Sequence record: NC_054922.1
Reading direction: 5' to 3' (one strand)
DNA from: Escherichia phage vB_EcoM_KAW1E185
Length of the DNA: 64,000 nucleotides
Below the pieces are notes generated by a model, which saw nothing but the letters and a program-made list of their open reading frames with translations, did not search any database and was not told the origin of the DNA. Shown here one piece after another: positions 3,148-6,005 of this stretch. The stretch's first letter is position 1. Each line of letters opens with the position of its first letter. The translations under genes and the position numbers were made by a program.

Positions 3148-3178
3148 CCAAAAAGCCCCAACCGAAAGGTTGGGGCTA
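3148..3178 (-). terminator. intrinsic terminator (10-bp GC stem, GAAA loop, U-tract); copy 1 of a duplicated 36-bp element
   Basis: Plus strand reads ataccaaaaagccccaaccgaaaggttggggctaag at 3145..3180; sits just downstream of the stop of the 3185..3658 gene. Confidence 0.6.
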
Positions 3179-3184
3179 AGAATG

Positions 3185-3658
3185 TTATTTGATTTGTTTA
3201 GCAGACCAAATGCGGTCTTTGATAATTTTTTGGATGTCTTCAACATATTCAAGAGAGTGAACATGTGGGTTATCTTTGAAACTATAAGCACGAGCTAGCT
3301 TTTGGCCTTCAGTTTTGATTACTAAAAGCTCTTTAAGGATAGCTTCATATTTGGAGATAATTCCTTTAACGATATTTTTCTCTTGTGTGACTTTAGGATC
3401 TGCTTTAGGAGCAGGTTTACCCGAAGCCTTTGCAAAAGCAGCGCCAGTAGCAACTAAACTTTTCCAGGCCATACTAACTGCATTCCCTGTAAATCCTTCG
3501 GCTTTCATATCACGAGCAAATTGGAATCGTGATTCATCGGAAGCATCTTTATAGGAATATTTACCCGCGGCAATGGCTGCTTTTGCGACAGCTTGAATTT
3601 CGGTGCTAGATGCTTCATTTAACACCGCTTCATTTAAAAATTGAGCATATGATTTCAT
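3185..3658 (-). CDS. internal-protein-like protein with N-terminal capsid-targeting leader (MKSYAQFLNE), 157 aa
   Basis: ORF-track ORF trimmed to the ATG at 3658 (AGGAAA Shine-Dalgarno upstream); leader resembles T4 internal-protein leaders ending in a gp21 L/I-x-E cleavage site; late promoter upstream. Confidence 0.6.
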   Translation of the reverse strand: MKSYAQFLNEAVLNEASSTEIQAVAKAAIAAGKYSYKDASDESRFQFARDMKAEGFTGNAVSMAWKSLVATGAAFAKASGKPAPKADPKVTQEKNIVKGIISKYEAILKELLVIKTEGQKLARAYSFKDNPHVHSLEYVEDIQKIIKDRIWSAKQIK

Positions 3659-3696
3659 CTTATTTCCTGTTTTAATTTGTAGATTTAATATACTAA

Positions 3697-3704
3697 TATT
3701 TATA
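3697..3704 (-). promoter_or_regulatory. late promoter TATAAATA upstream of the 3185..3658 gene
   Basis: Plus strand reads tatttata, i.e. TATAAATA on the minus strand, about 39 nt upstream of the ATG. Confidence 0.5.
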
Positions 3705-3732
3705 CCAAAAAGCCCCAACCTTTCGGTCGGGG
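3705..3732 (-). terminator. intrinsic terminator; copy 2 of the duplicated 36-bp element (loop inverted to TTTC)
   Basis: Plus strand reads ataccaaaaagccccaacctttcggtcggggctaag at 3702..3737; ends the tRNA/stable-RNA transcription unit. Confidence 0.6.
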
Positions 3733-3740
3733 CTAAGCCT

Positions 3741-4043
3741 TGCGGCAACCTTGTCGGGGTTCCACCTGCTAAGGCAAGTGTTTGTACGAAACGCCGGGAT
3801 TCGAACCCGGTTATTAAGTAGTTGACGCTACTCAATATTTTTAAAAGGCCATATCTCGACCATATCCGAACGTTCCGTCAAAAACGCTACTCGGCTTACG
3901 GCAAAGATATTTCCTCGAATCGATAATTCGGTGCGCCGTTTCTGCTGTGATGTAAGAGGGCATCAATAAACGCAAAGATTATTAACGCAATTCCTTACTC
4001 AGGGAACATCAGTCCGACGACTTACCGGTAGCGACCCGGTTTC
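3741..4043 (-). ncRNA. putative stable small RNA(s), comparable to T4 species 1/2 RNAs downstream of tRNA-Arg
   Basis: No ORF; T-arm-like CCGGGTTCGAATCCCGG; an 8-bp long-range pairing (ACGGAACG with CGTTTCGT) could form an acceptor-like stem; boundaries approximate. Confidence 0.35.
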
Positions 4044-4394
4044 TTAATATTCTTTTAAAGCATCAATCTGTTTACGGCGTTCACGCCATAAATCAATTGC
4101 TTCATACGCGGATTCAGCATTTCGAATTAGCCGGCATTTATGTAAAGACTTATGATTTTGATATTGTGTAGATAACGGAATTTTATCTAAAAGGTCTTTA
4201 CGTTCAAAGTATTCGTAACCATCTAAGCCAAATGAACGATTTTTGAGAAATTGCCAATGACCAAATTCGTTTTGAATATAAATATAATCCGCATGTTGAT
4301 AAAGTAAATTAATTTCACGAAATGAGATATGTTTTTCATATTCATTGAAGTAAAATGTTAAATCATGAACTACTAAATAAACATTACCTTTCAT
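4044..4394 (-). CDS. hypothetical protein, 116 aa, between tRNA-Arg and the stable-RNA region
   Basis: ORF track; no motif recognised. Confidence 0.45.
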   Translation of the reverse strand: MKGNVYLVVHDLTFYFNEYEKHISFREINLLYQHADYIYIQNEFGHWQFLKNRSFGLDGYEYFERKDLLDKIPLSTQYQNHKSLHKCRLIRNAESAYEAIDLWRERRKQIDALKEY

Positions 4395-4412: not shown

Positions 4413-4488
4413 TGGTCGAGGCAGTAGGGATCGAACCTACGACCTAGGACTTAGAAGGTCCTTGCTCTTCCTTCTGAGCTATGCCCCG
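4413..4488 (-). tRNA. tRNA-Arg (anticodon UCU)
   Basis: Hand-folded cloverleaf: anticodon arm AGGAC-CTTCTAA-GTCCT, T-loop GGTTCGATCC, encoded CCA. Confidence 0.85.
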
Positions 4489-4492
4489 TAAT

Positions 4493-4568
4493 TGGGGTGA
4501 CCGATGGGAGTCGAACCCATGACTACGAGAATCACAATCTCGAGTTCTACCAACTGAACTACGGCCAC
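4493..4568 (-). tRNA. tRNA-His (anticodon GUG)
   Basis: Anticodon arm CGAGA-TTGTGAT-TCTCG, T-arm ATGGG-TTCGACT-CCCAT, discriminator C, encoded CCA. Confidence 0.8.
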
Positions 4569-4682
4569 ATTAATACCTACTCCAACAATCAAGATGTCTT
4601 CACACGAAATTAAGAGAAGAGTGATCAGTTCAACCCCTATAATCGCGTCAAGTAGATATTAATGTGACAGTTGTCACAAATT

Positions 4683-4757
4683 TGGCGGACGTGATAGGAT
4701 TCGAACCTATAACCAATCGCTTAACAGGCGATCGCTCTGCCATTGAGCTACACATCC
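4683..4757 (-). tRNA. tRNA-Asn (anticodon GUU)
   Basis: Anticodon arm ATCGC-CTGTTAA-GCGAT, T-loop GGTTCGAATCC, encoded CCA. Confidence 0.8.
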
Positions 4758-4761
4758 AAAT

Positions 4762-4848
4762 TGGTGGGGAGTGGTGGAGTCGAACCACCCGAGTCGCAAT
4801 GACAATGAATTTACAGTCCACACCGCTACCTCTACGGGATAACTCCCC
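4762..4848 (-). tRNA. type II tRNA, probably tRNA-Tyr (anticodon GUA); D-arm non-canonical
   Basis: 87 nt; acceptor GGGGAGT/ACTCCCC, loop CTGTAAA, long variable arm, T-arm GGTGG-TTCGACT-CCACC, encoded CCA; anticodon stem has two G-U pairs. Confidence 0.6.
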
Positions 4849-4857
4849 AAATTAATT

Positions 4858-4932
4858 TGGTGGCCCTGGGTGGAATTGAACCACCATCTGGCGATTATGA
4901 GTCGCTTGCTTGAACCTTCCAGCTACAGGGCC
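4858..4932 (-). tRNA. tRNA with anticodon CAU (Ile2 or Met), in the position of T4 tRNA-Ile
   Basis: Acceptor GGCCCTG/CAGGGCC, anticodon loop CTCATAA, T-loop GGTTCAATTCC, encoded CCA. Confidence 0.75.
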
Positions 4933-4933
4933 T

Positions 4934-5009
4934 TGGTGCTGATTGACGGAATCGAACCGCCGACCTTCTCATTACAAGTGAGTTGCTCTACCTACTAAGC
5001 TAAATCAGC
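4934..5009 (-). tRNA. tRNA-Thr (anticodon UGU)
   Basis: Acceptor GCTGATT/AATCAGC, anticodon loop CTTGTAA, T-loop GGTTCGATTCC, encoded CCA. Confidence 0.85.
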
Positions 5010-5014
5010 AAAAC

Positions 5015-5104
5015 TGGCGGAGGCGATAGGATTTGAACCTATGAGTCGCCGGAGCGACTGCCGGTTTTCAAGACCGGTGCATTAAACCACTCTGCCACGC
5101 CTCC
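5015..5104 (-). tRNA. tRNA-Ser (anticodon UGA), type II
   Basis: 90 nt; anticodon arm CCGGT-CTTGAAA-ACCGG, long variable arm, T-loop GGTTCAAATCC, encoded CCA. Confidence 0.85.
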
Positions 5105-5110
5105 AAATAT

Positions 5111-5761
5111 TTATATATTGTTAATTTGATTTAGAATTCTTTTTGCTTGAGTATGACTTACGCCAATATGCTTAGCATATTTAGACAATTCGCCACGTTT
5201 AGAAAAATCATATAATTTAGAAATTTCTATTCTTCTTTTTCTTTCATCCGCAGAAACTTTTGCTTCGTTTGCTTTTGCTATTTTACGTTTAGCTTCTTGA
5301 GAATGAGTTTTACCAGCAAAGCCATTCTTCATTAATCCATTTGAAGACCATCCTTTTAATTTTCCGTTAGAATGTGCCTTTTTAACACCCAATGAAATTA
5401 ATTCGCGTTGCTGATCTGTCATAGGATAATTATTTATATGGTCCCATCCACCTTCACCTCCAAGTTTTAAATTATACACATCTGGTCTATTTAAAAACTC
5501 TTCTGTGACAATATTTTTCTCGGCTTCAAGCATAGATTCTTTATCGTCAAAATACTCTAATATTTCTTTAGAAAAATTTTCTATACCATATTTATCTTGG
5601 GCTCTTTTTAATAATTTACCAGAACCCATATATCCATCATCTAAATTTTCGGTAGAATGCACACCAATATAAATTTTATTATTAATTTTATTTGTTATTT
5701 TATAAAGATAAAAATGCATATCAGTCCCTAATAAAGAACTGAGCGTCTCACGACGAGTCAT
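5111..5761 (-). mobile_element. segB: GIY-YIG homing endonuclease (SegB-like) wedged between tRNA-Gly and tRNA-Ser
   Basis: N-terminal GIY-YIG module YLYKITNKINNKIYIGVHS plus basic C-terminal region; lies inside the tRNA array as T4 segB does; true start may be the internal Met at 5719. Confidence 0.8.
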
Positions 5762-5765
5762 AAAT

Positions 5766-5839
<74 letters not shown>

Positions 5840-5844
5840 AAATT

Positions 5845-5931
5845 TGGTGCGAGAAGTGGGACTCGAACCCACAAGGAAATCATTCCGCAGCATTTTAAGT
5901 GCTGTGCCTTTACCAATTTGACCATTCTCGC
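5845..5931 (-). tRNA. tRNA-Leu (anticodon UAA), type II
   Basis: 87 nt; acceptor GCGAGAA/TTCTCGC, anticodon arm CAGCA-CTTAAAA-TGCTG, T-loop GGGTTCGAGTCCC, encoded CCA. Confidence 0.85.
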
Positions 5932-5932
5932 G

Positions 5933-6005
5933 CTGGGAATAAAGGACTCGAACCTTTGCATCTAGCAGTCAAAGTGCTATGCCTTACCAACTTGGCTAAT
6001 TCCCA
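5933..6005 (-). tRNA. tRNA-Gln (anticodon UUG), no encoded CCA, abuts tRNA-Leu
   Basis: Acceptor TGGGAAT/ATTCCCA, anticodon arm TAGCA-CTTTGAC-TGCTA, T-loop AGGTTCGAGTCCT; only 1 nt separates it from tRNA-Leu. Confidence 0.8.

Follow-up and report, generated by a model that had tools for sequence, protein, structure and literature searches.

The window analysed here is a stretch of 64,000 nucleotides from Escherichia phage vB_EcoM_KAW1E185 (NC_054922.1), in which ten tRNA genes (4413–6005, all on the minus strand; ARAGORN and Rfam) are accompanied by a stable-RNA interval whose described elements lie on the same strand (Table 1). In the 5′ to 3′ direction of that strand, a 116-aa ORF ends with its stop codon, after which come about 340 nt without a credible ORF and then an intrinsic terminator. 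Aligned with phage T4, this interval encodes the orthologues of the two stable RNAs of that phage – rnaD, also called species 2 RNA, and rnaC, or species 1 RNA – followed by a conserved trailer and the terminator. An earlier sequence-only reading of this DNA had equated the region with the two T4 RNAs, and in this it was right, as both occur here at near-identity and in the T4 order; a reader scanning letters alone can evidently spot real non-coding RNA genes. It had also seen no credible ORF in the region, and indeed the open frames there are just 24–44 aa long and mostly TTG-started; the downstream gene's apparent 5′ extension is spurious.

Both RNAs have been known in T4 for about fifty years and annotated there for decades. 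The pair is therefore an already known feature, rediscovered here, and what is new is the detail that a comparative fold of rnaC from 29 homologues adds to known RNAs. In the T4 RefSeq record (NC_000866), rnaC (139 nt) and rnaD (119 nt) appear as the misc_RNA features T4s001/T4s002, directly downstream of tRNA-Arg, and the mature ends given in this work were taken from that annotation. A 2010 review remarks that their "biological roles are unknown" (PMC3014915), and a 2022 omics paper – which counts both among the late RNAs and shows them on northern blots of T4, rnaC as a discrete stable species of about 140 nt – likewise gives their function as unknown (PMC9697503). Papers as late as 2025 describe it no differently. 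They are among the few T4 genes without an assigned function.

The resemblance between the window and T4 extends to the strand, the trailer, the terminator and the tRNA gene region, with a common gene order of rnaD, rnaC, trailer and terminator. The differences are two. The window has ten tRNA genes, including those for His, Asn, Tyr and Met, compared with eight in T4; and while rnaD in T4 starts 1–2 nt after tRNA-Arg, the 116-aa ORF stands between the two here, so that, contrary to what had first been supposed, tRNA-Arg and the region are not adjacent. An ORF in this position occurs in many relatives; it is a matter of context that varies, and does not define the family. In Pfam, neither of the two flanking ORFs found a match.

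A 901-nt query around the locus matched 769 phage records at identities of up to 98.7%; nearly all are T4-like phages that infect Escherichia, Shigella and their relatives, and because of these matches we assign the window to Tequatrovirus. The covariance model built from the 29 rnaC homologues (R1) finds a sole copy in the window, at 3782–3924 (163 bits, E 1.5e-35).

Table 1. Features of the stable-RNA interval and its surroundings, in the direction of transcription (coordinates are those of the window)
Feature	Position	Strand	Remarks
Candidate promoter, T4 late-promoter-type motif TATAAATA	5108–5115	−	Pattern scan; nearest upstream on the RNA strand
tRNA-Arg(UCU)	4413–4488	−	Last tRNA upstream, same transcription direction; ARAGORN, Rfam
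116-aa ORF (phrog_3355)	4044–4394	−	Function unassigned; between tRNA-Arg and rnaD; its stop codon adjoins the 5′ end of rnaD
rnaD (T4 species 2 RNA) orthologue, about 118 nt	3930–4047	−	116/119 identical to T4 rnaD
rnaD 5′ hairpin ACCGG/CCGGU	4024–4040	−	Covaries to GCCGG/CCGGC
rnaD long-range helix, GUCGUCG with CGGCGCAC	4015–4021 with 3931–3938	−	Consensus GUCGUCG with CGGCG(C)AC
AU-rich spacer GAAUUA (6 nt), rnaD/rnaC boundary	3924–3929	−	Presumed endonucleolytic processing site; position relative to the T4 annotation
rnaC (T4 species 1 RNA) orthologue, 139 nt	3785–3923	−	138/139 identical to T4 rnaC; tRNA-like four-way junction
rnaC acceptor-like stem, 5′ strand CGAUUCG	3916–3922	−	Pairs with CGUUUCG, 3787–3793
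rnaC long rod arm, about 70 nt (about 27 bp)	3846–3915	−	AGG/CCU start where a D stem would be; helices 3–5 all with compensatory changes
rnaC rod apical loop UUGACG (6 nt)	3876–3881	−	
rnaC A-rich single-stranded linker UUUAAAAA (8 nt)	3838–3845	−	AAAAU block conserved in alignment A5; unpaired in all folds
rnaC 10-bp hairpin, variable-arm position	3812–3837	−	1 nt before the T stem; 6-nt loop CGUCAA at 3822–3827
rnaC T arm CCGGG-UUCGAAU-CCCGG	3794–3810	−	Canonical T-loop sequence; stacked directly on the acceptor-like stem
rnaC acceptor 3′ strand CGUUUCG (3787–3793) and UA tail (3785–3786)	3785–3793	−	Genome then reads CAAAC
Conserved 3′ trailer with small hairpins	3735–3784	−	Presumably removed in maturation; near-identical in T4
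Intrinsic terminator AGCCCCGACCGAAAGGUUGGGGCU + UUUUU	3706–3734	−	Stem-loop 3711–3734, U run to 3706; 10 pairs, 7 of them G–C

Transcription and processing

Upstream of the interval, a pattern scan of the RNA strand found no late-promoter-type motif between rnaD and the candidate listed in Table 1, and the first terminator downstream of rnaC is the one that closes the interval. There, a G+C-rich hairpin followed by a U run stands on the transcribed strand, in agreement with the strong terminator that had been placed at the end of the region; trailer and terminator taken together (3700–3784) have a folding z of −4.10. The consensus of T4 late promoters is known, and it is on this basis that the candidate motif may be read as a promoter. 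A single transcript would then run from tRNA-Ser to tRNA-Arg and on through the ORF, rnaD and rnaC, most likely starting from this motif and possibly from others further upstream.

Both RNAs are probably cut from this tRNA operon transcript. Their excision would fall to host enzymes of tRNA maturation, together with RNase E-type cuts in AU-rich spacers, since rnaC has a tRNA-like top half, shows tRNA-like spacing elsewhere and is surrounded by AU-rich spacers (AAAYWAU before it and ACAAAU after it). In this phage, the 5′ end of rnaD would have to be cut from an mRNA-like segment, because the 116-aa ORF is inserted after tRNA-Arg. Studies from the 1970s and 80s reportedly found species 2 and species 1 RNA joined in a dimeric precursor, and also a cleavage of species 1 by RNase III in vitro. 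Once released, the two RNAs would owe their stability to their compact structure, and the loops of rnaC, discussed below, would kiss within or between molecules and lock its fold. Taken jointly, the identity, the fold and the biogenesis proposed here for rnaC and rnaD strike us as highly probable.

The comparative fold of rnaC

The alignment from which the fold derives (A5) comprises 29 distinct rnaC homologues from eight phage genera; the loci were collected by patterns and BLAST queries that placed no constraint on the loops, and RNAalifold was run on 16 and on all 29 sequences. The consensus of the 29 is a four-way junction. Folded alone, the window sequence adopts the same structure (MFE −50.2 kcal/mol, z −4.56), and six of eight distant homologues folded singly – those of Kc304, PS49, NM4.3, Kos305, Melville and Marfa – return the same architecture. 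Across the 29 homologues, standard pairs fill 94.1% of the cells of the proposed structure, as against 83.9% when the partners are shuffled and 35–48% when they are slid by 1–3 columns. Twenty-two base pairs have changed on both sides in a compensatory manner, a figure that none of 500 shuffles reached. Covariance folding, which the sequence-only reading had named as a check of its proposal, thus shows rnaC to be structured.

Such covariation, together with the pattern of indels, is poorly compatible with two explanations of the locus. One is that it encodes small proteins, for instance through a 44-aa ORF at 3841–3975(−). Short ORFs are present, and many GenBank records do annotate an overlapping 'hypothetical protein' (e.g. 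CPT_Marfa_145). However, no frame is open throughout the family, and the frame that is open differs between clades; the homologues (142–146 nt) differ by indels of 1–2 nt, and their substitutions preserve base pairs rather than codons. The 44-aa ORF itself has a TTG start, and no CDS is annotated at this place in the curated record of T4; we find a coding role scarcely credible. The other explanation – that the RNAs are functionless, decaying remnants of tRNA genes – draws on the tRNA-like T arm and acceptor strand of rnaC, on occasional calls by tRNA finders and on a patchy distribution, yet it fits badly with 22 pairs kept by compensatory change, with columns invariant across eight genera and with the presence of rnaC in about 800 phage records, and we consider it very improbable.

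The individual parts of the fold differ in how they vary. The acceptor-like stem consists of seven pairs, five Watson–Crick and two invariant U·U, with one covarying pair; the third pair is A–U in 14 sequences and G–C in 15. The T arm, which the sequence-only reading had already pointed out as T-arm-like, lies on the minus strand, and the middle pair of its stem occurs as G–C in 14 sequences, as U–A in 13 and as A–U and U–G in one each. The T loop itself is apparently not an absolute requirement, because the rnaC of Kc304 carries a degenerate version of it (UGCAUUC). In the 10-bp hairpin, compensatory changes are found at eight of the nine stem pairs counted. The tail reads UACAA in 25 sequences and UCCAA – thus with an encoded CCA – in the four of Marfavirus type, which is why the family looks as if it derived from a CCA-ending tRNA-like RNA, with most of its members having no encoded CCA. 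In this fold, rnaC retains no more of a tRNA than its 'top half', with the rod and the 10-bp hairpin in place of the D and anticodon arms.

One further element proposed at the outset fared less well, namely an 8-bp long-range pairing thought capable of forming the acceptor-like stem. The pairing is present in the window, between ACGGAACG (3871–3878) and CGUUUCGU (3786–3793) with one G·U, and it is perfect in some phages, but it is not the acceptor stem: it shows no compensatory change, scores below the shuffles, is broken in 13, 9 and 5 of the 29 homologues at three of its positions and is broken in class II homologues, and as acceptor it was rejected in favour of the pairing with the 5′-terminal strand. 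It is better described as a lineage-specific alternative. This internal pairing is also what leads tRNA finders to call, occasionally, a 94–95-nt 'tRNA-Met/Lys' in the 3′ part of rnaC; in the rnaC of Enterobacter phage id4496, ARAGORN calls a 95-nt tRNA-Met by way of this non-conserved pairing.

The two apical loops of rnaC, UUGACG on the rod and CGUCAA on the 10-bp hairpin, are exact complements of each other. Both are 6 nt long, each is closed by covarying pairs, and their complementarity is 100% in 29/29 sequences: the loops are invariant in 25 sequences from seven genera and read UUGGCG and CGCCAA in the four of Marfavirus type, a joint change of A–U to G–C. This supports a kissing interaction between the predicted hairpins, the covariation representing one evolutionary event in one clade of four sequences. 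A kiss within one molecule and one in a dimer are, on these sequences, equally possible; by rough reasoning, the intramolecular form needs a bent rod and an 8-nt linker stretched across the gap. As isolated duplexes, the loop pairs have about −5.5 and −7.6 kcal/mol. Loop–loop complexes of the kissing type, their 6–7-nt loops fully paired, are known from HIV TAR–TAR* and ColE1 RNA I/RNA II, where they form between two RNAs. As these complexes are generally described, rnaC resembles them in possessing two hairpins with perfectly complementary 6-nt loops whose closing pairs vary, and differs from them in carrying both loops within one 139-nt RNA.

Three other roles considered for the loop sequences were rejected. 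An extended duplex of 15 nt between the two rnaC hairpins is found in phage VPA32 only and is not general. An alternative pairing of loop 2 with UGACGG or UUGGCC, situated close to the junction beside the invariant GGCC, fits some clades only. Lastly, TTGACG in rnaC was considered as a −35 promoter hexamer; inspection by eye found no acceptable −10 element at 16–18 nt, and no promoter-like site was called inside rnaC.

rnaD and the distribution of the two RNAs

The rnaD consensus was obtained with RNAalifold from 15 distinct sequences, in which 97.1% of the cells are paired and six pairs are compensatory; the window sequence by itself folds only marginally better than its shuffles (z −1.64). 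Besides the two helices listed in Table 1, the consensus contains a 4-bp helix of (U/A)GUU with AGC(A/U), which displays a clean U–A to A–U swap, and an inner helix GUAAG/CUUAC that changes to AUAAG/CUUAU. The 4-bp helix replaced an earlier candidate, UGAUG/CAUCA, whose changes are not compensatory. For the apical hairpin, no fewer than four unrelated sequences are found across phages. In this model, rnaD is an irregular stem-loop with a tip that is exchanged between phages, unrelated to rnaC. It has no T arm and is not tRNA-like; the idea that it resembles a tRNA ending in ACCA was rejected, as the 3′ ACC varies (ACC, ACA, AAA) and sits in a helix.

By sensitive BLAST, the locus is present in 811 phage records. 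rnaC occurs in eight genera – Tequatrovirus, Mosigvirus, Karamvirus, Winklervirus, Kanagawavirus, Moonvirus, Gelderlandvirus and Marfavirus – across which its sequences are about 70% identical or less, with many columns invariant. Pattern scans that left the interior free added 16 loci in IMG/VR and 11 metagenome loci; a pattern scan of 185,579 bacterial and archaeal genomes gave no rnaC match, and further BLAST searches and pattern scans gave no rnaC subfamilies beyond those in the eight genera. In about 800 phage genomes the locus is unannotated or wrongly annotated, often mis-called as a tRNA of 94–95 nt or as a small CDS.

For the T4-type rnaD, the searches gave three genera only, namely Tequatro-, Mosig- and Dhakavirus. 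Dhakavirus keeps rnaD, trailer and terminator and precisely lacks rnaC (its junction reading ...CACCGAA/CACUUGCC...), and five other genera have rnaC without rnaD, so that the two RNAs are, judging by this distribution, independent modules. In Karam-, Gelderland-, Winkler- and Moonvirus, rnaC resides inside the tRNA cluster, with spacers of 3–9 nt to both of its neighbouring tRNAs; the upstream one is typically tRNA-Trp, the downstream one tRNA-Gly.

These arrangements bear on the idea that rnaD and rnaC are cis-acting processing or stability elements, which protect the upstream tRNAs from 3′ exonucleases or organise the cleavage of the precursor and whose fragments are mere by-products. Their location between the last tRNA and the terminator, in this phage as in T4, is what such elements would be expected to show, and release by the same processing as the tRNAs would also agree with it. 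Yet rnaC lies between two tRNAs in the four genera just named and is thus not a 3′ cap there; Dhakavirus has the same trailer and terminator without any rnaC; and loops and linker that are invariant through eight genera exceed the needs of a generic protective hairpin. A role of this kind therefore seems to us unlikely.

Relation to known RNAs and possible function

Several traits link rnaC to canonical tRNAs (RF00005): an acceptor-type stem of 7 bp contiguous with a T stem of 5 bp, a UUCGAAU T loop, one unpaired nucleotide after the acceptor stem, and a location in tRNA clusters with tRNA-like spacing. Its hairpin 1 nt before the T stem, moreover, recalls the variable arm of class II tRNAs. 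What sets it apart is the lack of a D arm and of an anticodon arm with a 7-nt loop, its length of 139 nt, the two U·U pairs in the acceptor stem and, in most genera, ACA instead of CCA. In the window, rnaC gave neither an RF00005 match nor an ARAGORN call, and its best match in the clan is to tRNA-Sec, at 17 bits against a gathering threshold of 47; this is also the sole exception to the finding that, in Rfam 15, which has no family for rnaC or rnaD, nothing matches at gathering or E-value thresholds. The weak matches of the rnaC covariance model are true tRNAs.

There are non-decoding RNAs that keep the acceptor/T-arm half of a tRNA and have other helices in place of the anticodon half, namely the tRNA-like domain of tmRNA and YrlA, a bacterial relative of Y RNAs in form. 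From what is generally known of these families, rnaC follows the same principle without any sequence relation to them. Neither ARAGORN nor Rfam calls a tmRNA here, and rnaC has no tag ORF and no pseudoknot ring; for YrlA (RF02553), the sole match is a weak one (17.7 bits against 69) and falls on tRNA-Arg/His (4463–4525), outside rnaC and rnaD.

Decoding or routine aminoacylation by rnaC seems unlikely, in view of the lack of an anticodon loop and of a 3′ end that in most genera reads ACA and not CCA. Tentatively, rnaC might mimic a tRNA without decoding, and so bind, titrate or recruit a protein that has the acceptor/T-arm elbow as its recognition site; it would be dispensable, with a benefit depending on the host – a possible reading, in our estimate, though one short of probable. 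Its targets could, speculatively, be a tRNA-processing or tRNA-modifying enzyme, or a host defence factor directed against tRNAs; it cannot be a decoy for anticodon nucleases, since it has no anticodon loop. A guess of this kind fits the patchy, modular distribution of the RNAs, their restriction to phages and the observation that rnaD was the site of the sole convergent SNP in a 2025 evolution experiment, in which a T4-like phage was adapted to the host ECOR34 (PMC12685909).

The same SNP (PMC12685909) is compatible with another explanation, in which the RNAs are trans-acting regulators whose rnaC loops, A-rich linker and rnaD tip base-pair with host or phage mRNAs and so alter their translation or decay. 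For regulators of this type, one would expect what is seen in rnaC, where loops and linker are invariant while the stems vary, and in rnaD, whose tip of at least four sequence types would suit a changeable targeting module. On the other hand, the two invariant loops are each other's complement and co-vary, and a self-contained structure is the simpler account of this; seeds of 6 nt are too short for specificity; moreover, according to the 2010 review, T4 has no characterised trans-acting sRNA (PMC3014915). We think regulation by base pairing improbable.

Extending the mimic reading to the whole family leads to a broader conjecture, which we regard as doubtful: rnaC would be a phage-specific family of 'top-half' tRNA mimics, present in eight or more genera among the T4-like phages that infect Enterobacterales, locked by a 6-bp kiss between the invariant, co-varying loops and with the role of decoy or adaptor towards an elbow-recognising host protein, while rnaD would be a second RNA, one that modulates host range through a swappable tip. 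If this were true, the fifty-year question of what T4 species 1 and species 2 RNAs do would become testable through mutants in the loops and the acceptor stem. The experimental handles gained here on these abundant phage RNAs are the covariation-backed fold of rnaC, the modularity of rnaC and rnaD, and the variable tip of rnaD. The locus is an ordinary one for a T4-like phage, and its co-varying complementary loops point to specific mutants.

The structured element 5' of tRNA-His

Besides rnaC and rnaD – the orthologues of the T4 species 1 and species 2 RNAs – the window carries a third structured non-coding element, which fills the 114-nt gap between tRNA-Asn and tRNA-His, has a folding z of -4.36 and is conserved in 354 phage records. 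Its counterparts in Karamvirus, Gelderlandvirus and Klebsiella phage Roth67 always lie immediately 5' of tRNA-His, the 96-nt Gln–His gap of Roth67 being exactly taken up by such an element. The consensus consists of two inner hairpins enclosed by a 14-bp closing helix, with four to five compensatory pairs among six sequences. It has no match in Rfam and is absent from T4. The element may represent a leader of tRNA-His or a further stable RNA.

Features in the window and in related phage loci
Feature	Location	Strand	Remarks
158-aa gene, phrog_2280	window 3185-3661	minus	function unknown; flanked by two terminator hairpins
Near-identical terminator hairpins (n=2)	window 3154-3177 and 3711-3734	minus	bracket the 158-aa gene
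116-aa ORF, phrog_3355	window 4044-4394	minus	function unknown; between tRNA-Arg and rnaD
Third structured non-coding element	window 4569-4682	minus	between tRNA-Asn and tRNA-His
216-aa ORF	window 5111-5761	minus	inside tRNA cluster, between tRNA-Gly and tRNA-Ser
Divergent tRNA, unannotated	L002 (Kosakonia phage Kc304) 1431-1502		directly upstream of rnaC
Mis-annotated rnaC, examples	L004 (related phage locus) 1554-1648; OQ599310, NC_054919, PQ824230, OR352944, MN044033, others		

Protein-coding genes in and around the cluster

Downstream of rnaC, the 158-aa gene has its own TATAAATA at 3697-3704 and is bracketed by hairpins with an identical stem and an inverted loop, whereas T4 has one terminator at the corresponding position and lacks the gene; gene and hairpins together look like an inserted cassette whose terminator was duplicated on insertion. 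The 116-aa ORF, for which Pfam returned no match, is an insertion relative to T4 that separates tRNA-Arg from rnaD, its TAA stop adjoining the rnaD 5' end. The 216-aa ORF, with a GIY-YIG-like N-terminus (YLYKITNKINNKIYIGVH), is probably a SegB-type homing endonuclease, located elsewhere than T4 segB.

The terminator scan also returned a plus-strand terminator-like site at 4024-4040. Here the rnaD 5' hairpin is simply being read on the opposite strand, where a T-rich stretch comes after it, and the site is probably non-functional.

The rnaC locus and neighbouring elements in related phages

In databases, the rnaC locus is frequently mis-annotated: some records show a 94–95-nt tRNA (tRNA-Met, tRNA-Lys or tRNA-Asn) there, others a CDS for a 'hypothetical protein' (e.g. 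CPT_Marfa_145); rnaC or rnaD is labelled in only a few records (T4, RB5 and GiZh).

The divergent tRNA of Kosakonia phage Kc304 scores 36 bits against Rfam RF00005 (threshold 29) and is not called by ARAGORN; its acceptor stem is GGGAGUU/AGCUCCC and its 3' end ACCA. The adjacent rnaC (L002 1510-1652) has a degenerate T loop, with GGUGCAUUCCC in place of GGUUCGAAUCC; the T-loop consensus is retained in a close relative of this copy (locus L010).

Between tRNA-Arg and rnaD, two Dhakavirus loci (L021, at about 640-700, and L022) and locus L012 contain a stretch of about 60 nt (…GCCGUCGUAUGAAGGACUGAU…CACCGGCGCAAC) resembling a truncated copy of rnaD. Between tRNA-Met and rnaC, Klebsiella phage Marfa (L044, at about 1140-1195) and loci L026 and L027 carry a 56-nt element – possibly another mini tRNA-like RNA – in which GGGGUGG forms an acceptor-like closing stem with either CCACUCC or CCACCCC, the next nucleotide being A.
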